Assembly: GCF_024223415.1 (NCBI RefSeq) | Contig: NZ_CP100500.1 | From: Escherichia coli | Lineage (GTDB): Bacteria > Pseudomonadota > Gammaproteobacteria > Enterobacterales > Enterobacteriaceae | Length of the DNA: 64,000 nt | Direction: 5' to 3' (one strand) | Part shown: one piece after another, positions 18,688 to 27,354 of the stretch | Layout: each line of letters begins with the position of its first letter | Position numbering within the stretch: position 1 is the stretch's first letter | The notes under the pieces: model-generated | The model's database searches: none | The model's input: only the letters and a program-made list of their open reading frames with translations | Told to the model about the DNA's origin: nothing | Translations under genes and position numbers: made by a program

Positions 18688-20670
18688 TTAACGGCTCTGC
18701 TTTCTCAGCAAATAGATAAAATATGGCGCGCCGATAAAGGTCGACAGCAGCCCCGCCGGGATCTGGAATGGAAACAGCACCATCCGCCCACACCAATCAG
18801 CGAATACCAGCAGTAAACCACCCACCAGCGCCGAAATTACGATGTGTGGCATCGTCCGTCGAAAGCCCATCATCCGCGCAATATGCGGTGCCATTAAACC
18901 AACAAAACTCAACGGTCCAATAGTCATCGTCGCGGTCGCCGTCAGCGAAGCCGCTAACAGCAGCAGCGCAATTCGCGTCGGCGTCAGCGCCATTCCTACG
19001 GCCCGCGCGGTATCACCACCCAGCGGTAAAATGGTCAGCCAGCGGCGGCACAGCGGGGTAATCGCCAGCAAAATCACCATCACAATTCCGGTGCGCCAGA
19101 CCTGCGCATCGGTGGCGTTGTAGGTCGAACCAGAGATCCAGGTCAGCACTTGCGCCATTCGCGGGTCACCACTCGCCTGCAACATCATTAAAAGCATGGT
19201 GAATGCGGTACTTAACGCCATCCCCGCCAGTAACATGCGGTGTGGGGAAAATCCACCGCGCCCGGCGGCGATCATAATAATCAACAGCGTCACCGCCGCA
19301 CCGATACTTCCCGCGGGTAACAGCCAGCCAAAAGCATTACCCGGTACCAGAAACAGCATCAGTACCACGCCAAACGCTGCGCCGGAGCTAATCCCCAGCA
19401 CTTCCGGGCTTGCCATCGGGTTGCCGGTCAGTCGCTGAATAATACAGCCCGCCACCGCCAGCATGACGCCCGCAAACAGCGCCGCCATAATTCGCGGCCA
19501 GCGCCAGGGCATTAAATCATCGAGCAACGCCCCGCTCGCCCACGTCCAGCCGTGCGCATCACGACCAAACGACAGCGCCACCACCACAGCCATCAACAGC
19601 AGCACGCCGCCCGCGAGGGCAAACGCCAGCACATGTTGGCGTTCAGCCGCGACACGATCGTTGACCTTCATATCCGGCGCGCTAATGCTGCGTAAACGCG
19701 GCAGCAACCACAGTAGCAGCGGCGCACCGATCAACGCAGTGACCGAACCGGTGGACACTTCCATCCACACGCGAGTCAGCCAGAGGATGATTTGATCGGA
19801 AAGCCAGAGGATCAGCGCACCAATCAGCGACGCCAGCATCAACCGTGGCAGCAGACGCCGCGCCCCCAGCATTTTTGCCAGCAGCGGCGCGAACAACCCG
19901 ATAAAGCCGATAATCCCTACCGCATTCACCAGCAGCGCACTGATGACAATCGCCAGCGACAGCGCCGCCAGACGCGCGAGCGACAAGGCCAGCCCGAGAT
20001 TGCGCGCCACGCCATCATCAAGCCCCATCAGGGTTAACGGACGAAGTAGCAGCAACGTCAGCATCACACCGCCCAGCAACTGCGGCCATAAACGCTCAAC
20101 ACCGCCCCAGTCGGTTTGCGTCAGCGTTCCGGTGCTCCACAGGAACATGCTTTGCAGTTGGTCATGGTGGAAGATAACCAGTAACTGATTGATTGCCCCA
20201 CAATAAAGGCTCACTACCAGCCCCGCGAGAATCAGCGTTACCGGCGACAGCCGTTTCCCCCACGCGACGCCAAAGACAATTAAGCCAACAACACAAGCCC
20301 CTGCCAGCGCAGCAAACTGGCTCGCCATCGCACCAGGGATCGCCCAAAGCGTCGTGACGGTAATCCCCAGTTGCGCTCCTGTAGCAACGCCCAACGTCGT
20401 CGGTTCCGCCAGCGGGTTACGCAGCACTTGCTGAAACAGCACGCCCACCAGCCCCAGGCCCGCGCCCACCAGTAGAGAAATCGCCAGACGCGGTAACAAG
20501 CTGTAGTGAAAAATCATCTGCTCGATGACGTTAATATCCGGCGACCAGGCGGCCTGCGCCCACTGGCTACGCGGCAGCGCCTGCGAAAAGTTCATCCAGG
20601 TCAGCGCCGTAGCGACAATCACCAGCAGCGCCAGCAATAACGCCGGGAAAAGCGCAATTCGTTTACTCAC
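18688..20670 (-). CDS. fhuB: ferric hydroxamate ABC transporter permease (double-length fused permease)
   Basis: 660-aa ORF MSKRIALFPALLLALLVIVATALTWMNF...; GTG start; overlaps fhuD stop (GTGA). Confidence 0.96.
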   Translation of the reverse strand: MSKRIALFPALLLALLVIVATALTWMNFSQALPRSQWAQAAWSPDINVIEQMIFHYSLLPRLAISLLVGAGLGLVGVLFQQVLRNPLAEPTTLGVATGAQLGITVTTLWAIPGAMASQFAALAGACVVGLIVFGVAWGKRLSPVTLILAGLVVSLYCGAINQLLVIFHHDQLQSMFLWSTGTLTQTDWGGVERLWPQLLGGVMLTLLLLRPLTLMGLDDGVARNLGLALSLARLAALSLAIVISALLVNAVGIIGFIGLFAPLLAKMLGARRLLPRLMLASLIGALILWLSDQIILWLTRVWMEVSTGSVTALIGAPLLLWLLPRLRSISAPDMKVNDRVAAERQHVLAFALAGGVLLLMAVVVALSFGRDAHGWTWASGALLDDLMPWRWPRIMAALFAGVMLAVAGCIIQRLTGNPMASPEVLGISSGAAFGVVLMLFLVPGNAFGWLLPAGSIGAAVTLLIIMIAAGRGGFSPHRMLLAGMALSTAFTMLLMMLQASGDPRMAQVLTWISGSTYNATDAQVWRTGIVMVILLAITPLCRRWLTILPLGGDTARAVGMALTPTRIALLLLAASLTATATMTIGPLSFVGLMAPHIARMMGFRRTMPHIVISALVGGLLLVFADWCGRMVLFPFQIPAGLLSTFIGAPYFIYLLRKQSR

Positions 20671-21557
20671 GCTTTACCTCCGATGGCGTTATCCAGAATA
20701 CGCACAAAGTGCATTGCCGAGAGCGTCGCACCATAAAACCAGACTGCGGGTACGCGCTGAAAGCGCCCTGTACGGACAAACGGCATGGCCTGCCACAGCG
20801 GGGTTGCCATTAGCGCATCCATGTCTTTGCTGTTGTCGTGATCAAAACAGAGCACATCAACATCTTTATACGCCGCCAGACGATCGATACTGACGGCGGT
20901 GCTGCCCCAGAAGTTGGTTTCCCCTTGCCAGGCATTTAGGATGCCGTACTCATCGAGAATTTCCTGGAACAAGCTGTTTGGCCCGAAGACCAGCATATGG
21001 CGCGGATCGATAAGCGTCGTCAGCAATAACGGACGCGCACCACGCTTCACAAAGCGGGGTTTCATGCTGCGGATAAAGTCTTCATATTGCGCTAAATGCG
21101 TTTCTGCTGCGCTTTGCAGGTTAAGTAAATCCGCCATTTCCGTCAGCGATTTACGCGCCATCGCCAGCGGCTGTTTGCCGTCGCTGAAGTTAAATCCACG
21201 CCCCGGCGCAATACGAGCCAGCATTTCTGGTGAAGGGCCATATCCTGCCGACCAGACCATAAACGACGGTTTCATTTCGGTCAGCAGTTCGAGGTTAGGT
21301 TCTGTACGCAAACCAACGTCAATCACTGAGTCCGGCAATGGTGGTTCGCTGACCCACAGGCGATAGTTGATGGTATCCGCCACGCCGTAAGGCACGATGC
21401 CGAGCGCCAGCAGTAATTCCACCGGCAACCACTCCAGCGCCACAATACGATTGGGATCAATAGCCGCCGCGTGGGCGGTATTCATCTGCCATAACAACGG
21501 AGAAAGCGCCATCGCCGTTAACAGTCGACGGCGCGAAATAAGAGGTAAGCCGCTCAT
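20667..21557 (-). CDS. fhuD: ferric hydroxamate periplasmic binding protein
   Basis: Start placed at the second codon of the track ORF, MSGLPLISRRRLLTAMALSPLLWQMNTAHA (Tat-like signal), 296 aa. Confidence 0.95.
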   Translation of the reverse strand: MSGLPLISRRRLLTAMALSPLLWQMNTAHAAAIDPNRIVALEWLPVELLLALGIVPYGVADTINYRLWVSEPPLPDSVIDVGLRTEPNLELLTEMKPSFMVWSAGYGPSPEMLARIAPGRGFNFSDGKQPLAMARKSLTEMADLLNLQSAAETHLAQYEDFIRSMKPRFVKRGARPLLLTTLIDPRHMLVFGPNSLFQEILDEYGILNAWQGETNFWGSTAVSIDRLAAYKDVDVLCFDHDNSKDMDALMATPLWQAMPFVRTGRFQRVPAVWFYGATLSAMHFVRILDNAIGGKA

Positions 21558-22354
21558 CAATAAACAAAACTCACAGGTGCAGCACCCGCCGGATGCGGCA
21601 AAATACCCATCGGGATGCCATAAATCATTTCGAGGGTTTCGCCGCGCATAATTTCCGCAGGCGTTCCCTGAGCAATCATTTCACCGCCGCGCAGGGCGAC
21701 CAGATAATCACAGTAGCGTGCCGCCATATTGATATCGTGCAGCACGGCAATGACCGTCAGACCACGTTCCTGACTTAAACGATGCACCAGCGCCAGCACA
21801 TCAACCTGGTGGGCGATATCCAGCGCCGAGGTTGGCTCGTCGAGCAACAGACAACGGCTATCCTGCGCCACCAGCATGGCGATCCACGCCCGCTGACGTT
21901 CGCCGCCAGAGAGGCTATCGACCAGCCGATGCGCCAGCGGTTTTAAGCCAACCAGCGAGATAGCTTCCTCAACTTTTTCGCGATCTGCCGCACCAAAGCG
22001 CCCTAGTGCGCCATGCCACGGGTAACGACCAATCGCCACCAGTTCACGCACGGTCATCCCTTCTGCCGGAGGAAGCTGCTGCGGTAAATAAGCCACTTTG
22101 CGGGCAAACGCTTTGCTGCTCCAGCTTTCCAGCGGCTGGGCATCAAGAAGAATCTCCCCTTCCGACGGCGGCTGATGACGGCCAAGCATTTTGAGCAGAG
22201 TGGATTTACCAGAACCGTTGTGACCAATCAGACCGGTCACTTTCCCGGCAGGAAAGGTTAACGACAGCGGATGCAAAAGCGTGCGCCCGGGCACACGAAA
22301 GGAGATATTACGCAGTGCAAAAGTGGTATCGGAATGATTCGTGTATTCCTGCAT
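21557..22354 (-). CDS. fhuC: ferric hydroxamate ABC transporter ATP-binding protein
   Basis: Track ORF 21557..22459; start placed at MQEYTNHSDTTFALRNISFRVPGRTLLHPLSLTFPAGKVTGLIGHNGSGKSTLL (265 aa); Walker A and LSGGERQR signature; stop overlaps the fhuD ATG. Confidence 0.95.
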   Translation of the reverse strand: MQEYTNHSDTTFALRNISFRVPGRTLLHPLSLTFPAGKVTGLIGHNGSGKSTLLKMLGRHQPPSEGEILLDAQPLESWSSKAFARKVAYLPQQLPPAEGMTVRELVAIGRYPWHGALGRFGAADREKVEEAISLVGLKPLAHRLVDSLSGGERQRAWIAMLVAQDSRCLLLDEPTSALDIAHQVDVLALVHRLSQERGLTVIAVLHDINMAARYCDYLVALRGGEMIAQGTPAEIMRGETLEMIYGIPMGILPHPAGAAPVSFVY

Positions 22355-22404
22355 AACAGCCAACTTGTGAAACGGGCACGGAAATCCGTGCCCCAAAAGA
22401 GAAA

Positions 22405-24600
22405 TTAGAAACGGAAGGTTGCGGTTGCAACGACCTGACGTTCTGCGCCCCAGTAACATGCATAATCACGATAGCAACTGGAGACATATTCGCGGTCGAA
22501 CAGGTTATTTACGTTAACACCAACAGAAGAACCAGGCATACCGAAACGAGCTAGATCATATTTTATCATTGCATCAACCAGGGTATACCCCCCAACATTG
22601 AATGTCTGATTGGCCTTTTCACCCGTTGTGTAGAAACTTGAAGTGTCGCCAAAATAACGTGCCCCTGCACCAAAACTCAGACCACTAAGAGCTGTTTCGC
22701 GGAAAGTGTAATCTGCCCACAGCGACGCCATATTTCGAGGGACCTCTGCCGGGCGTTTACCTTTATACAGTGTGTCTTTGGTGTATTCAGCATCGGTGTA
22801 GCTATATGCCGCAGTCACATTGATATTAGCGTTGAGAGCTGCTTTCGCCTCAATTGCAAAGCCACGAGAACGAATCTCTCCCCCCTGTACGCTAAACAAA
22901 ATATTACTTGGGTCTGCAGTCAGATTTTTGTCTTTCGTCAACTGGAATACCGAGGCAGTGACAGTGACAGGCGTATCTTTCGGTACGTATTTGACACCTG
23001 CTTCGTACTGCTTACCGCGAGAAGGATCAAATGGTTTTCCTTCTTTAGTCGCTCCAGATACTGGCTCGAAGGATTCGCTATAACTGAAATAAGGTGAAAT
23101 ACCGTTATCGAACAGATAATTAATGCCACCTCTCCAGGTGAACTGCTGATCGTTAATTTCATCCAAAGAACTCGTCGAACGAGTATAGGTAGAAGTTTTC
23201 GCAAAATCGTAACGACCACCCAGCGTCAATACCCACTTATTCCACTCAGACTGATCCTGAATATAAAGCCCTGTCTGTTCCTGACGGTTAATTACAGCAT
23301 ATGGGAAATTGATATTGATATTGGCGTTACCGTACTGTGGATCCTGCATGCTAATTGGATCTGCAGTACCATAGTTCGCATCAATATCGTTACGCATGCG
23401 CAGGTAATCCACGCCAGTAAGCAAGGTATGTGCTACAGCACCGGTAGCAAAGTTAGACTGTAGTTGCGTATCAACAGTGAATGAATTTAAATCTTCATCT
23501 GAACGTACATAAGCACGGCTAATTTGCGCTGGCGCGATGTAACTATTGCCATATACTGCATCGTAGAGTGTATGAATGCGGGTATAGCGCAGATTCTGAC
23601 GTACAGTAAAAGTATCATTAAATTCATGAGCAAAGCTGTAGCCAATTAATTGTTGACGACGAGACATCTTATTGTCTTTCTCGCCTTCATTAAAATCTGT
23701 TGGCAATTTGTGCCAGCTACCATTTGCATCCTGATAGGGAACAACTGTTCCCTGGCGCGGTAACCAACCATAATAGCCTGCATCGGGATCACTCTGGAAA
23801 TTACTCAGGAAAGTCAAATCCGTTTTATCATCAGGACGCCAGCTGAATGAGGGAGCTACTGCATACCGTGTAGTTTTTGCATACTTTTGTTGCGCATCCT
23901 GACTACGTCCTAATCCAGTCAAGCGATATGACCAAACGCCATCATCATCTATTGCATCACTAAAATCGAATCCGGTCTGCCAAAGATTATCCGTTCCCAT
24001 TTTGAACTGGATCTCTTTAATCGGATCCGTTGAAGGACGTTTGCTGACCATGCTTACTACTCCGCCCGGATGACTTTTACCGTACAGTACGGATACTGGG
24101 CCACGGAGTAATTCCACACGTTCAAGGAAATAAGGATCAATAGAGGCTTCAGAGTAGTTATCCCCCTGAAGTTTTAAGCCATCCAGATATTGGTTGGTAT
24201 TTACTGTACTGGGTGTAGTAAATCCACGAATAGAAACAACATCATACGTCGTTGAACTACCACGCGTTGAAAAGACACTTGGCGTATAATCCAGAGCTTC
24301 TTTTACCGTTGCGGGTTGTTTGATATCCATCTCTTCTCGGGTCACAACCGAAATAGACTGCGGCGTTTTTTCAATTGGTGTATCCGTTTTAGTCGCAGTA
24401 GCAGAGTGCTTCGCCGCAATAGTTGCAGCAGGCCCCCATGCGCTTTCTTGCGGCGCAGGTGCAGCAGTAACGGTGATAGTGTCTTCTTTCGGTTCAACCG
24501 CTGCCTGTGCATAAACAGACATGCCGCTAACCGCTGTGGCTACTACAACTGCGATTTTACGCAGTGAGTGTTTTGGCTGAGCAGTTTTGGAACGCGCCAT
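22405..24600 (-). CDS. fhuA: TonB-dependent ferrichrome outer membrane receptor, divergent mosaic allele
   Basis: 731-aa ORF; signal peptide, TonB box (DTITVTA) and C-terminal ...GAERQVVATATFRF are K-12-like, but the plug and barrel core differ extensively from K-12 FhuA as I recall it and the DNA is AT-richer than flanking genes. Confidence 0.9.
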   Translation of the reverse strand: MARSKTAQPKHSLRKIAVVVATAVSGMSVYAQAAVEPKEDTITVTAAPAPQESAWGPAATIAAKHSATATKTDTPIEKTPQSISVVTREEMDIKQPATVKEALDYTPSVFSTRGSSTTYDVVSIRGFTTPSTVNTNQYLDGLKLQGDNYSEASIDPYFLERVELLRGPVSVLYGKSHPGGVVSMVSKRPSTDPIKEIQFKMGTDNLWQTGFDFSDAIDDDGVWSYRLTGLGRSQDAQQKYAKTTRYAVAPSFSWRPDDKTDLTFLSNFQSDPDAGYYGWLPRQGTVVPYQDANGSWHKLPTDFNEGEKDNKMSRRQQLIGYSFAHEFNDTFTVRQNLRYTRIHTLYDAVYGNSYIAPAQISRAYVRSDEDLNSFTVDTQLQSNFATGAVAHTLLTGVDYLRMRNDIDANYGTADPISMQDPQYGNANININFPYAVINRQEQTGLYIQDQSEWNKWVLTLGGRYDFAKTSTYTRSTSSLDEINDQQFTWRGGINYLFDNGISPYFSYSESFEPVSGATKEGKPFDPSRGKQYEAGVKYVPKDTPVTVTASVFQLTKDKNLTADPSNILFSVQGGEIRSRGFAIEAKAALNANINVTAAYSYTDAEYTKDTLYKGKRPAEVPRNMASLWADYTFRETALSGLSFGAGARYFGDTSSFYTTGEKANQTFNVGGYTLVDAMIKYDLARFGMPGSSVGVNVNNLFDREYVSSCYRDYACYWGAERQVVATATFRF

Positions 24601-24637
24601 TGGTATATCTCTGATGTAAAGTGAATGATAACGTAAA

Positions 24638-24672
24638 CGAGAATGATTATTATAAAGATAAGATAATATTCG
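24638..24672 (-). promoter_or_regulatory. fhuA promoter with Fur-box-like operator
   Basis: On the fhuA strand: ...tttataataatcattctcgtttacgttatcattcac... about 30-60 nt upstream of the ATG; AT-rich hexamer repeats resembling the Fur box consensus. Confidence 0.5.
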
Positions 24673-24779
24673 AAACGCTGGCGGGTTCGCAAGCGGTACG
24701 CAATCTGAGCGTTCCTGAAGGGTTAATAAACAACCAGATGAAAAGAAAGGGTTAATACTTTGGGTGGGATGTTATTTTA

Positions 24780-24802
24780 CCGGATGGCAACTCGCCATCC
24801 GG
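24780..24802 (-). terminator. hairpin downstream of mrcB
   Basis: ccggatggc-aactc-gccatccgg inverted repeat after the mrcB stop, followed on the mrcB strand by an A/T-rich tract. Confidence 0.55.
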
Positions 24803-24819
24803 TATTTCACGCTTAGATG

Positions 24820-27354
24820 TTAATTACTACCAAACATATCCTTAATCCAACCGGCTACACCGTCGCTGTCTTTCTGCTCTTGCTGAGCAGGTTGCTGTTG
24901 CGGCTGTTGCTGCGGCTGAGAAGACTGATCAAACGGATTGCCTGACGGCTGCTGCTGCATCTCACTCTGCTGGCACAGCGATTGCGGATCGCTGGTCCAG
25001 ACCGGCAAGACACGCATGCCACCGCTGCAAACAAAGTTGCCGTCGTAGTCCACGCCCATATCTGCAATATCTTCTGGCGGAACAAGATTCAGCGGCGTTG
25101 GCGTCTGGTTAGCCAGATAACGCTGATAAATCGACATTGCCCCGCTGGCTCCATACAGTTTGGTCGGCTGGTTGTTATCACGGCCGACCCAGGTGATGGT
25201 CACCGTGCTGCCGTCAATGCCCGCAAACCAGGTATCTACGTTATTGTTGGTAGTCCCTGTTTTCCCTGCCAGATGCAGGTTCGGGTATTTCGCCCCAAGC
25301 TGACGACCCGTACCACGTTGTACCACCTGCTGCATGGTCCATAGTGTCAGATACGCCGCCTGCGCCGGAACAGCGCGTTCCGCCTGCGGGAAGCTCTGAT
25401 ACAGCACTTTGCCATCTTCCGCGATTACCGAACGCAGCGCAGAAAGCGGTGCACGGTTACCACCGCTGGCGATGGTCTGGAATGCCTGCGCCACTTCGAT
25501 TGGCGTTAAGTTCAACGCCCCCAGCAGCATTGCCGGAACCGGATGCAACTGATCTTTCGGTACGCCCAGTTTAATCCAGGTATCCGTAACCGCAGGCAGC
25601 CCCAGCGCCATCCCCAGATTTACCGTCGGCACGTTCATCGAACGGGTCAACGCATCCACCAGCATCACTCTGCCGCTTTCGCTATAACGACGGTCATCGT
25701 TCTGCGGTGACCAGACCTGGCCATTCGGCTGACGTAGCGCGATTGGCGCATCCGCAATCCACGTATTCAGACGATAGATTTTCGGCTGGCTTAAAGCCGT
25801 CAGATAAGTCGCTGGTTTTGCAAGGGAACCAATCGAACGCCGCGCCTGCATCGCACGGTTGTAGCCCGCAAACTGCGGCTCAGAACCTCCGACCATCGCA
25901 CGAACTTCACCACTAAAGCGGTCGACGACCACAATCGCGGTTTCCAGATCGCTCAGCTTACGCTGTTTCTTAAGTGCCGGAATGCCTTCCACGGCGGCTT
26001 TTTCTGCCGCGTCCTGGGCCACCGAGTCAAAGGTAGTGAAGATCTTCACGCCGGAGAGATCTTTTACCTTATCGCCTAATTTAGCCTGAAGCTCCTGACG
26101 CACCAGTTGCATAAAGGCTGGCTGAGGAGAGATCACCCCACCGCGCGGCTGAACACCCAGCGGACGCGCACTCAACATGTCATAGAGTTCTTGATCAATA
26201 ATCTGTTGCTGTTGCAGCAGACGCAGTACCAGATTACGTCGCTCCAGCGCCAGTTTCGGGTTACGCCACGGGTTGTAGATGGACGCTCCTTTCACCATAC
26301 CGACTAACAGCGCCTGCTGATCGAGGCTCAATTCTTCTACCGGGCGACCAAAGTAATACAAGCTCGCCAGCGGGAAGCCGCGGATTTCGTTGTCGCCACT
26401 CTGACCGAGATACACCTCGTTCATATACAGCTCAAGAATACGGTCTTTGCTGTAACGCGCGTCCATGATCAGCGCCATGTAAGCTTCGTTCGCTTTACGC
26501 CAGTAAGAGCGCTCGCTGGAGAGGAACAGGTTTTTCACCAGCTGTTGCGTCAGCGTACTCGCCCCCTGCACCGTGCGTCCGGCTGTCAGGTTTGCCAGCA
26601 CCGCACGTCCGATGGAGTAGAGACTGATTCCATCATGCTCGTAGAAATGGCGGTCTTCTGTCGCCAGCAAAGTATCCACCAGCAAATCCGGGAAACCACT
26701 GCGCGGCACAAACAAACGCTGCTCACCGTTTGGTGAGGAGATCATGGTGATCAGACGCGGATCAAGACGGAAGAAACCGAACTGACGGTTGTTCTCCATA
26801 TTGACGATGGTCGCCAGATGATCGCCATCAAAGGTCAGACGCGCACGCACCTGCCCTTCTTTGCTGTCCGGGAAATCAAACGGACGGCGGATCATCTCAA
26901 TGCTGTTAGCCTGCACAGTAAATTCGCCAGGACGGGTCATTTTCGACACCTGACGATACTGTGTTGCCTCCAGCAGCTTCACCATTTCGTTCTTGCTGAT
27001 GGTCATGTCTGGCTCAAGGTTGACCATTCGGCCATAAACTGCCGCAGGCAGTTGCCAGACCTTGCCATCAATACGGCTGCGAATTTTTTGATCGAGATAA
27101 ACGCCGTAAATGGCGATCAGCACGGCAAAAACGATAGCCAGTTTTAACAGCAGCCATAGCCAGCCGCGTTTGCCACGAGCCTTACGCCCTTTGCCTTTGC
27201 CCTTACCTTTGCGCGGCATCGGTTCTTCATCCTCATAGTCATCATAATCGTCGTAATCATCGTCATCTTCGTAACGACGACGGCTTACCTTTTGTTTGAC
27301 CGGACGCGTCGGTTTCCCTTTGCGTCCAATTGGCTCGCGGTCATTCCCGGCCAT
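24820..27354 (-). CDS. mrcB: penicillin-binding protein 1B (bifunctional glycosyltransferase / transpeptidase)
   Basis: Track ORF 24820..27369; start placed at [21 protein letters not shown]... (844 aa); acidic [15 protein letters not shown] and basic [10 protein letters not shown] tracts, TM helix, GT51 and transpeptidase domains, Q-rich C-terminus. Confidence 0.96.

Follow-up and report, generated by a model that had tools for sequence, protein, structure and literature searches.

The divergent fhuA gene of an Escherichia coli contig is very probably an old, low-frequency E4 cassette encoding a working FhuA with a remodelled surface

The fhuA gene of Escherichia coli contig NZ_CP100500.1, analysed here within a stretch of 64,000 nucleotides (the window), differs so strongly from its K-12 counterpart that both its origin and its behaviour as a receptor come into question. 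K-12 FhuA is the receptor for phages T1, T5 and phi80, colicin M, microcin J25 and albomycin. The window gene (22405..24600, minus strand) is an intact coding sequence for a ferrichrome outer-membrane transporter of 731 amino acids. We consider it very probable that it belongs to E4, one of four deep fhuA classes in E. coli, and that it is an old cassette held at low frequency and encoding a working FhuA with a remodelled surface.

The surroundings of the gene are unexceptional. It lies in the normal hrpB-mrcB-fhuACDB-hemL arrangement, where it follows mrcB and opens the fhuACDB operon, and the same order is found in the other carriers of the allele and in other genera. A preliminary description of the window had called the flanks K-12-like; they are ordinary for E. 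coli but not specifically those of K-12. The ABC importer genes of the operon, fhuC, fhuD and fhuB (18688..22354, minus strand, with the true start of fhuC at 22354 inferred from the K-12 annotation), follow the K-12 gene order as ordinary E. coli alleles with 97-98% nucleotide identity to K-12 and a dS of 0.07-0.12. The upstream flank, mrcB (PBP1b; 24820..27354, minus strand), is likewise an ordinary E. coli allele; over its final 1 kb, counted together with the intergenic region, 990 of 1000 positions match K-12. Flanks essentially identical to those of the window occur in strains AR_0085 and NCTC9112, and the fhuA of AR_0085 (WP_000124391.1) is a single nucleotide apart from the window gene. 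The resemblance to K-12 that had been noted for the promoter and Fur-box region is borne out, as 215 of 219 bases match in the mrcB-fhuA intergenic region (24601..24819, minus strand), with differences at 24758, 24759, 24762 and 24764 and full identity over the 157 nt adjoining the fhuA start codon. This identical part includes the Fur-box-like site at 24639-24657, a candidate site that is the best match to the Fur consensus, with 5 mismatches in 19 positions.

Within the gene, breakpoint mapping against K-12 fhuA gave sharp junctions and the structure of a recombinant mosaic, as expected from the preliminary description. The conserved 5' arm (24431..24600, minus strand), which covers the signal peptide, the TonB box and the start of the mature N-terminus and could act as the upstream recombination anchor, is identical at 169 of 170 positions to K-12 and also at 169 of 170 to the C5-type allele. 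The first 63 residues, signal peptide and TonB box included, are those of K-12 FhuA, close to the 60 or so first estimated. Next to this arm is a 90-nt junction segment (24341..24430, minus strand) common only to the E3 (C5-type) allele of E. coli: all 90 positions match C5-type, 75 of 90 match K-12, and every other genus compared matches at 73-83%. This implies that the E3 and E4 alleles share a history of nested recombination. The divergent, AT-rich core (22455..24340, minus strand) then spans the greater part of the plug and virtually all of the barrel. Its identity to K-12 is 59% (gaps counted) to 62% at the nucleotide level and 60% at the protein level, with saturated synonymous sites (pS 0.79) and a dN of 0.31. 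Over its full length the protein is 63% identical to the 747 residues of K-12 FhuA with 40 gap positions, in keeping with the heavy substitution and indels originally reported. The 3' arm (22405..22454, minus strand), comprising the last beta-strand and the stop codon and a possible downstream recombination anchor, has one mismatch to K-12 in 50 positions, at 22454, and 22405-22445 is identical at 41 of 41. About 40 C-terminal residues had been thought to match K-12; the last 15 are identical, but a count by eye on the protein alignment gave only about 30 of 39 and DNA identity resumes at 22454, so that the wider match reflects general conservation and not a junction. The first 170 nt are E. 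coli-specific and the same across all classes, and the present gene is therefore a recombinant in any case. An assembly chimera can be dismissed, as 90 complete genomes have this allele with identical junctions.

The base composition sets the gene apart from its neighbours. Its GC content is 45.4% and its GC3 0.383, as against 51.2% and 0.535 for K-12 fhuA, and the K-12 flanking genes mrcB and fhuC have GC contents of 55% and 57%. GC3 in the window is 0.608 for mrcB and 0.565 for fhuC, and adjacent E. coli genes range over 0.57-0.69. The earlier observation that the core is AT-richer than fhuC and mrcB can be sharpened: the GC3 of fhuA (0.38) is the lowest of the 34 open reading frames of at least 250 amino acids in the window (z = -4.0). 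The GC3 values of all its sampled relatives, 0.60-0.76, are far higher.

By its indels and loops, compared with the published description, the allele would fall into cluster E4, a class already described in 2018 as having L3 and L10 extended by insertions, L4 cut back by a deletion, and L5 changed (Wang et al., 2018; bioRxiv 10.1101/320069; Infect Immun 86:e00573-18). Alone among the E. coli clusters, E4 falls with other genera of the enterobacteria and not with the Salmonella clusters (bioRxiv 10.1101/320069). The window allele shares with E4 the insertions peculiar to it, at Indel 1 in L3 and Indel 2 in L10, and the conserved operon context. Like E4, it is without the insertions that E1, S1 and E2 carry in L4 (Indel 3) and L5 (Indel 4), and it clusters with the Group II genera apart from E1-E3 and S1-S2. 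It does not differ in kind from the E4 of Wang et al., the window copy having one private substitution, E582A. Beyond that study, the present analysis provides the exact junctions, the 90-nt segment identical to E3, the GC3 signature and a frequency of 1.7%, as well as two sub-variants in which core dS equals flank dS and a divergence of about 30% in the plug and strands, which had been described as highly conserved (bioRxiv 10.1101/320069). The timing and the continuation of fhuA exchange were explicitly left open in the same work (bioRxiv 10.1101/320069).

Two other E. coli alleles put E4 in context. K-12 FhuA (cluster E1; PDB 1BY3, 1BY5, 2FCP and 8A8C) shares with it the locus, operon, promoter, signal peptide, TonB box and the fold of a plug in a 22-strand barrel, and differs in the core (60% amino acid identity), in loops L3, L4, L5, L8 and L10, and in GC3 (0.54 against 0.38). 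The C5-type allele WP_000124383.1 (E3/S2 of Wang et al.; the non-clone allele of ST410, PMC6715731) is, like E4, an AT-rich replacement allele (GC3 0.40) of rare to moderate occurrence, with the same 3' junction in addition to the identical 5' segment; its core is only 62% identical to that of the window in amino acids and it has insertions in L6 and L7 in place of L3 and L10. The representative of its 90% cluster is a Salmonella enterica FhuA, 95% identical to it, and it is related to the FhuA types of K. aerogenes, Cronobacter and Kosakonia. Replacement of a fhuA allele through recombination has been reported in ST410 (Feng et al. 2019, PMC6715731), and for ompC, ompF, ompA, lamB and fhuA of E. 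coli a 'mosaic evolution' has been described in which a conserved framework carries exchangeable surface-exposed regions and a limited number of types is spread across lineages (AEM 2022; PMC12175518). The exchanged unit here, in contrast, is practically the whole 1.9-kb core and not short loop-sized patches.

The protein retains the general features of a TonB-dependent receptor. Pfam Plug and TonB_dep_Rec_b-barrel domains are both present, and the EDTITV sequence of the TonB-box region is identical to K-12. An AF2 model built on 130 diverse sequences had a pLDDT of 92.2 and 22 barrel strands (a run on a 20-sequence alignment was discarded at a pLDDT of 38.6), and its best fold match in the PDB was FhuA itself (1by5; TM 0.90/0.94, rmsd 1.6 A). 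For the ferrichrome pocket we used the residues that we take to be R81, G99, Q100, Y116, Y244, W246, Y313, Y315, F391 and F693 (K-12 mature numbering), a list that reportedly goes back to Ferguson and Locher in 1998. Five of these ten positions are identical to K-12 (R81, Y116, Y244, W246 and Y313), two are conservatively substituted (F391Y and F693Y) and three are changed (G99T, Q100V and Y315N). Trabulsiella and E. kobei FhuA also have G99T and Q100V, that of P. vulneris retains G99 and has Q100A, and Y315N, F391Y and F693Y are common to all three of the Group II relatives checked. Y244 and W246 have been identified as ferrichrome-binding sites (PMC10373560) and Y116 has been named as a plug residue (PMC9586334). 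The overall pattern would be compatible with hydroxamate transport; as three pocket residues differ from K-12, substrate preference may differ. The private change E582A (GAA to GCA at 22856..22856, minus strand) distinguishes the window copy from other carriers: AR_0085, NCTC9112 and E2348/69 all have glutamate at this nearly invariant barrel position, where conservation reached at least 90% in the alignment of 20 sequences and again in that of 130. The exact window protein was on only 7 contigs and the common variant on at least 1000. Loss of such a near-invariant glutamate could impair function.

The greatest change is to the cell exterior. With loops delimited by the AF2 strand boundaries, and about 10 residues per strand assumed to span the membrane, identity to K-12 was 51% on the extracellular face against 71% elsewhere (p = 1.9e-7), and 38 of the 40 gap columns lay on that face; the structural model thus upholds a concentration of substitutions and of nearly all indels there. 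Divergence is not confined to the loops, as the plug (69% identical to K-12) and membrane strands (73%) have been replaced too. L3 has a 4-residue insertion (YQDANGSWHKL against LPN----GKRL in K-12; Indel 1, about residues 297-300) and L10 has 6 extra residues (GDTSSFYTTGEKANQTF against GS-----SYGDPAN-SF; Indel 2, about residues 699-703). L4 is 24 residues shorter than in K-12 and has lost the Cys318-Cys329 disulfide and Tyr325, L5 is replaced and 9 residues shorter, L8 has the changes F557L and E554S, and EL7 has D509E; the C692-C698 pair is conserved with K-12. The K-12 binding surface of loops L4, L5, L7 and L8 is therefore not preserved. Most hydrogen bonds of the T5 protein pb5 are made with EL4, EL5 and EL8 (PMC9586334), and a far smaller divergence is known to block infection, since neither T1 nor T5 uses the FhuA of strain Nissle, which departs from K-12-type FhuA at only 82 of 753 residues (PMC13226779). 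Given the remodelling of L3, L4, L5, L8 and L10, we infer that ligands fitted to K-12 would bind E4 FhuA poorly, namely T5 pb5, T1, phi80 and probably colicin M. The E4 allele thus probably alters phage and colicin sensitivity.

Outside E. coli, the core is nearest to FhuA proteins of Trabulsiella, Enterobacter, Pseudescherichia and Kluyvera (amino acid identity 0.78-0.85, with Trabulsiella at 0.85, E. kobei at 0.84 and P. vulneris at 0.82), against 0.59-0.62 to the other E. coli classes (K-12 0.60, C5-type 0.62). Synteny at the fhu locus is conserved in Trabulsiella, Enterobacter and Pseudescherichia. The closest sampled relatives, FhuA of Trabulsiella odontotermitis, Enterobacter kobei and Pseudescherichia vulneris (82-86% amino acid identity), have no indels relative to the window, broadly the same pocket residue states and the same position beside fhuCDB, but their GC3 is 0.64-0.76 against 0.38, synonymous sites are saturated and their signal peptides are genus-specific. 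They are relatives of the E4 core and not its donors. A search with the core for a donor lineage, which had been suggested at the outset, gave none: the best match outside E. coli/Shigella was 86%, with nothing above this among 5.8 billion clustered proteins, and exact-peptide seeds, which should have matched any relative above 95%, found no donor among 100,044 species-representative genomes. All named members read of the E4 90% cluster were E. coli or Shigella. As no donor was found, the case for import has to be made from composition and phylogeny. We note that E4 FhuA is at 0.82-0.86 to Trabulsiella, P. vulneris and E. kobei and K-12-type FhuA at only 0.63-0.66, where the flanking orthologs are at 0.89 (mrcB), 0.89-0.92 (fhuC) and 0.74-0.77 (fhuD). 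At the protein level the outlier is K-12 FhuA, and 'divergent' is a K-12-centred label.

Of 5,426 complete E. coli genomes, 90 (1.7%) carry the E4 allele, EPEC E2348/69 among them. It forms a discrete class: the 90 genomes carry it at 95% identity or more, the other 5,336 or so are at 60-80%, and no intermediates between E4 and other classes were found among the 5,426. There are two E4 sub-variants with identical junctions, and between the window and E2348/69 the core dS is 0.149 and the flank dS 0.125-0.169. This equality suggests that E4 has occupied the locus for roughly the time since the lineages split, and the class looks old in E. coli, seemingly as old as the deepest sampled splits. 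MSI001, ETEC1730 and EH08-18-36 have cores at a dS of 0-0.007 within flanks at 0.075-0.172, and the E4 core thus appears also to have moved between E. coli lineages; near-identical cores in flanks at a dS of 0.08-0.17 make this exchange recent. The import of a foreign core by recombination, as first proposed, is consequently supported by the sharp junctions and foreign composition, but the event was neither private to this strain nor recent, with 90 of 5,426 genomes carrying the allele and core dS equal to that of the flanks. E2348/69 has an AT-rich fimbrial operon upstream of fhuA that occurs in 575 genomes, mostly at 93% identity and including ST131-type strains. Its co-import with the E4 core was rejected given the 575 genomes as against 90, and the window and most E4 carriers are without the operon.

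Several other explanations have to be set against this reading. A recent and direct acquisition of the core from another species by this lineage would account for the foreign composition, the sharp junctions and a protein phylogeny that places the core with other genera; we regard it as highly improbable, as the nearest non-Escherichia protein is at 86% with synonymous sites saturated (pS 0.79), the cluster members read are confined to E. coli and Shigella, the allele is absent from the species-representative genomes, and the two sub-variants among the 90 complete genomes have diverged as much as their flanks. Rapid divergence in situ from a K-12-like ancestor, by strong positive selection and without recombination, is refuted and has practically no chance of being correct. 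Differences are enriched in the loops, and earlier studies reported positive selection on fhuA (Chen 2006 and Petersen 2007, both cited within bioRxiv 10.1101/320069), but against it stand saturated synonymous sites and a 15-point GC3 shift beside ends and neighbours that are 99-100% identical. Moreover, about 30% of the plug and of the membrane strands differs as well, the core is nearer to sequences of other genera than to any of the remaining E. coli classes, and intermediates are lacking in the 5,426 genomes.

It is unlikely, though less so than either of these, that E4 is the vertically inherited ancestral ortholog of Escherichia and that the K-12-type (E1/E2) and E3 alleles are the later arrivals. 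Identity to other genera at the level of the flanking orthologs, when K-12-type FhuA is so much lower, speaks for this explanation; the core also co-diverges with the flanks between A/B1-like and E2348/69 backgrounds, and in K. aerogenes it is the E3-like allele that is AT-rich, the E4-like one having native composition (GC3 0.70). A GC3 of 0.38 next to genes at 0.57-0.69 is nevertheless hard to square with vertical descent, the E. coli-specific first 170 nt, the same across classes, mark the present gene as a recombinant, and Salmonella has E1-like and E3-like clusters but not E4 (including in Wang et al., bioRxiv 10.1101/320069), so that the ancestor of Escherichia and Salmonella more likely had Group I alleles. 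The three changed pocket residues and E582A at a conserved glutamate could be taken as signs of a paralogous TonB-dependent receptor (FoxA- or FhuE-like) or of a decaying pseudogene. This too is very improbable, marginally more so than a fresh import: the protein scored 1320 bits against the cut-off of 803 of the FhuA equivalog model NF007465 and was below the cut-offs of the sister models for FoxA (593 against 1300) and FhuE (91 against 666), in Trabulsiella, Pseudescherichia and K. aerogenes the mrcB-fhuCDB locus holds a gene of the same type, and the open reading frame is intact with a dN/dS of 0.065, indicative of purifying selection on E4 fhuA.

We propose that fhuA behaves like a replaceable cassette. 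The conserved 5' end with the signal peptide and TonB box, the conserved 3' end with the last beta-strand, and mrcB and fhuC would provide homology for RecA-type recombination, and the core of about 1.9 kb between the conserved arms would be exchanged as a block. The E4 core belongs to the FhuA lineage of Trabulsiella, Enterobacter, Pseudescherichia and Kluyvera. It very probably came into Escherichia at an early date from an AT-richer source outside the genomes sampled, to persist at low frequency (about 1.7%) while still being passed between E. coli lineages. That GC3 stands at 0.38 without amelioration, although residence seems to have been long, sits uneasily with a simple model of old import. 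The E4 protein would most likely be a working TonB-dependent ferric-hydroxamate transporter, since the TonB box, the fold and most of the pocket are kept, fhuACDB is intact and the gene is under purifying selection. Phages and bacteriocins, as enemies, may maintain the polymorphism.

As in E. coli, the fhuA locus of Klebsiella aerogenes is occupied now by an E4-like and now by an E3-like type, and the junctions fall at the same gene positions in both species. Perhaps, and we offer this tentatively as somewhat less probable than its converse, the FhuA types form a balanced polymorphism that extends across genera, from E. coli to K. aerogenes. If so, there would be either an unsampled AT-rich enterobacterial reservoir that feeds several genera or a sustained force that keeps the cassettes AT-rich. 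E4 fhuA is no new kind of element and follows the documented pattern of receptor genes as exchangeable cassettes between conserved arms; the junctions, the frequency, the contrast of age with recent spread, and the parallel in K. aerogenes are modest refinements of the published account. The FhuA type decides which phages, colicins, microcins and sideromycin antibiotics enter a strain, and E4 status is for this reason useful in the prediction of phage host range, in the design of phage cocktails and for albomycin-like drugs.

The fhuA gene of the window (22405..24600, minus strand) is an intact ORF of 731 amino acids, as the preliminary description had it, and the gene order hrpB-mrcB-fhuA-fhuC-fhuD-fhuB-hemL is that of K-12. 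GC content falls from 0.55–0.60 in the flanks to 0.41–0.47 within fhuA. With a GC of 45.4% and a GC3 of 0.383 (K-12 fhuA, 51.2% and 0.535), the gene has the lowest GC3 of the 34 non-overlapping window ORFs of at least 250 amino acids (z = -4.0; remaining mean 0.572, sd 0.047), which bears out the AT-richness claimed for its core. The longest-ORF call for fhuC (21557-22459, minus strand, 300 amino acids) runs 55 nt into the fhuA 3′ end; alignment with the K-12 annotation places the fhuC start at the ATG at 22354 (265 amino acids), making the overlap an ORF-calling artefact.

By BLASTP the protein is 63% identical to K-12 FhuA with 40 gap positions, and residues 1–63 show no difference. Alignment of the window, K-12, strain C5 and AR_0085 from mrcB to fhuC yielded a four-part structure, all on the minus strand. 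From the 3′ end of mrcB through the intergenic region into fhuA, whose first 170 nt are 24431-24600, the window is 99–100% identical to K-12. This stretch is followed by a 90-nt segment (24341-24430) that matches K-12 at 75/90 positions (83%), every other genus tested at 73–83% and the C5-type allele at 90/90. The core (22455-24340) is 59% identical to K-12 with gaps counted and 62% ungapped, about equal to its identity to the C5-type, and near-complete identity is restored from 22454 to the stop codon. Breakpoint mapping against K-12 thus showed a mosaic with sharp identity changes at 24430/24340 and 22454. The K-12-like N-terminus reported earlier was confirmed; at the C-terminus a conserved arm does exist, but it covers just ~16 codons, and the rest of the ~40 residues first credited to it reflects ordinary conservation.

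Four FhuA clusters have been defined in E. coli (E1–E4) and two in Salmonella (Wang et al., 2018; bioRxiv 10.1101/320069, later Infect Immun), with a fhuA tree incongruent with fhuCDB, indels at loop apexes and a proposal of fhuA exchange between enterobacteria. Of the E. coli clusters, E4 alone falls into 'Group II'; inserted residues in L3 and L10 together with an L4 deletion are unique to it, and L2 and L5–L7 are altered too (bioRxiv 10.1101/320069). The indel pattern of the window allele matches this published description of E4, on which the assignment is based; K-12 is E1 and the C5-type E3/S2. The E3 and E4 alleles are otherwise unrelated, and their complete identity at 24341-24430 points to recombination between them inside E. 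coli. Replacement of the fhuA allele through recombination has also been described in ST410 (Feng et al., 2019; PMC6715731). Later papers generalized such findings as 'mosaic evolution' of outer-membrane proteins (AEM 2022; PMC12175518).

Among 5,426 complete E. coli genomes surveyed by megablast (whole gene) and blastn (core alone), 90 (1.7%) carried the core at ≥95% identity; the other ~5,336 matching genomes lay at 60–80%, with no intermediate cores, and the allele class is thus discrete. One sub-variant (76 genomes, ≥99.7%) came from pigs, poultry, people, water and soil (e.g. AR_0085, NCTC9112, ETEC1730), and the other (14 genomes, 96.3%) includes the EPEC reference strain E2348/69; the junctions were common to every E4 carrier examined. 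Between the window and E2348/69, core dS was 0.149 (dN/dS 0.065) and flank dS 0.125 (fhuC), 0.158 (fhuD) and 0.169 (fhuB), so core and flanks have diverged to the same extent, which is what residence of the E4 class at the locus for about as long as these lineages have been separate would produce. In MSI001, ETEC1730 and EH08-18-36, however, a core at dS 0–0.007 from the window sits in flanks at dS 0.075–0.172, which shows recent cassette transfer between E. coli backgrounds as well. In fhuB (18688-20670), GC3 reaches its maximum for the window (0.694) and E. coli strains differ at synonymous sites to an unusual degree (dS up to 0.17); the pattern differs by carrier (compared loci L023–L028), so recombination in the region extends beyond fhuA.

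The allele is not a foreign import private to this strain: the class is known and long established in E. coli. Searches for a donor lineage were unsuccessful. Among 5.8 billion clustered proteins nothing beyond the E. coli cluster exceeded 86% (Trabulsiella odontotermitis 86%, Enterobacter kobei 84%, Scandinavium and Pseudescherichia 83%); the named members listed for the 90% cluster were all E. coli, plus one entry labelled Shigella flexneri by UniRef. A scan of 100,044 species, each represented by a single genome, found no close copy (top matches Siccibacter 81% and Kluyvera 78–80%). Core identity was 0.85 to Trabulsiella, 0.84 to E. kobei, 0.82 to P. vulneris and 0.64 to Erwinia, the last slightly above the K-12-type (0.60), C5-type (0.62) and Nissle-type (0.60). 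Synonymous sites were saturated in all these comparisons (pS about 0.79), and core dN was 0.098 to Trabulsiella and 0.31 to K-12. E. coli flanking proteins compared with the same genera gave 0.89 (mrcB), 0.89–0.92 (fhuC) and 0.74–0.77 (fhuD), against 0.82–0.86 for window-type FhuA and 0.63–0.66 for K-12 FhuA; by this control the window-type divergence is at the ordinary inter-genus level and K-12 FhuA is the outlier. Core GC3 (0.38) is far below the 0.60–0.76 of the relatives. None of those sampled is the donor, and composition is the strongest argument that the core came from a foreign, AT-richer source.

The C5-type protein (WP_000124383.1) shares a 90% cluster with Salmonella enterica FhuA (95% identity) and has further relatives in K. 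aerogenes, Kluyvera, Cronobacter and Kosakonia. Genomes labelled K. aerogenes carry either a window-like, E4-like allele (P0044) or a C5-like, E3-like one (P0138) between hrpB-mrcB and fhuCDB (fhuA at 3501-5711 and 3501-5726 of loci L030 and L032). The flanks of the two agree at about 97%; the alleles diverge from about 245–260 nt into the gene to about 40 nt before the stop codon, as in E. coli. The dimorphism and junction positions are those of E. coli, but the compositional polarity is opposite: in K. aerogenes the E4-like allele looks native (GC3 0.70) and the E3-like allele is AT-rich (0.46).

The window protein passed the FhuA equivalog model by a wide margin and failed those of FoxA and FhuE. 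Its structure, predicted from 130 diverse aligned homologues (pLDDT 92.2, pTM 0.90), has a plug and 22 barrel strands and best matches ferrichrome-bound E. coli FhuA (1by5; TM 0.90/0.94, rmsd 1.6 Å). Partitioned by model strand boundaries, with ~10 residues per strand beside the periplasmic turns taken as membrane-spanning, the protein had a K-12 identity of 0.69 in the plug, 0.73 in membrane/periplasmic and 0.51 in extracellular parts (Fisher p = 1.9e-7), with 38/40 gap columns extracellular (L3, L4, L5, L10). The surface is thus preferentially remodelled, yet plug and strands were replaced too. Compared with K-12, L4 is 24 residues shorter, with the C318–C329 disulfide and Y325 gone, L5 is shorter by 9 residues with an unrelated sequence, and L8 carries E554S and F557L. 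The TonB box is identical. Pocket residues R81, Y116, Y244, W246 and Y313 are kept and F391Y and F693Y are conservative, whereas G99T, Q100V and Y315N are unlike K-12. Trabulsiella and E. kobei FhuA share G99T and Q100V (P. vulneris has retained G99, with Q100A next to it), and Y315N, F391Y and F693Y occur in 3/3 Group II relatives checked.

The sole difference from the common E4 variant (AR_0085, NCTC9112) is a nonsynonymous E582A at 22856; E2348/69 likewise has Glu. The position is ≥90% conserved in 20- and 130-sequence TonB-dependent-transporter alignments and aligns with K-12 mature E571, which we take to be one of the conserved plug–barrel 'lock region' residues. The exact window protein was found in 7 contigs only, the common form in at least 1000. 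The change could be neutral, or selected and altering transport or toxin sensitivity.

The promoter was K-12-like as described: the nearest 157 nt are identical, including the best Fur-box-like site (24639-24657), and intergenic mismatches are limited to 24758-24764. The window lacks a four-gene chaperone-usher fimbrial operon (GC 40.7%) that lies between mrcB and fhuA in E2348/69 (9314-14195 of locus L029) and DCE7, where window homology restarts at 24757, adjoining these mismatches. It occurs in 575/5,426 E. coli genomes, ST131-type strains among them, with an identity of 93% in most, and E. kobei has a homologous usher upstream of fhuA (locus L014, 1-2800; 66% nucleotide identity). The mrcB–fhuA junction is thus a second variable site, distinct from the fhuA core. 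Elsewhere in the window, a fimbrial-protein-like ORF (41037-42149, plus strand; weak StkG match, 61 bits, cut-off 329) has the second-lowest GC3 (0.429). Its position, downstream of an outer-membrane usher gene (36623-39223, plus strand; equivalog NF007337, 1561 bits), makes it probably the yad fimbrial adhesin gene yadC; yadC and fhuA are both listed as clone-specific replaced alleles in ST410 (Feng et al., 2019; PMC6715731).

The divergence of this fhuA is real and far beyond chance, and the proposal of recombinational core replacement with an altered receptor surface was essentially right, given the mosaic junctions and extracellular remodelling. Phage T5 pb5 touches all FhuA loops but EL1–3, with hydrogen bonds mostly to EL4, EL5 and EL8 (PMC9586334); L8, notably F557, is critical for several FhuA-dependent phages; and Nissle FhuA, differing at 82/753 residues from the K-12-type, is not used by T1 and T5 (PMC13226779). 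We infer that E4 FhuA would have altered phage and bacteriocin phenotypes. The allele is already known; a modest residual interest lies in its AT-rich composition and in its behaviour as a trans-genus cassette.
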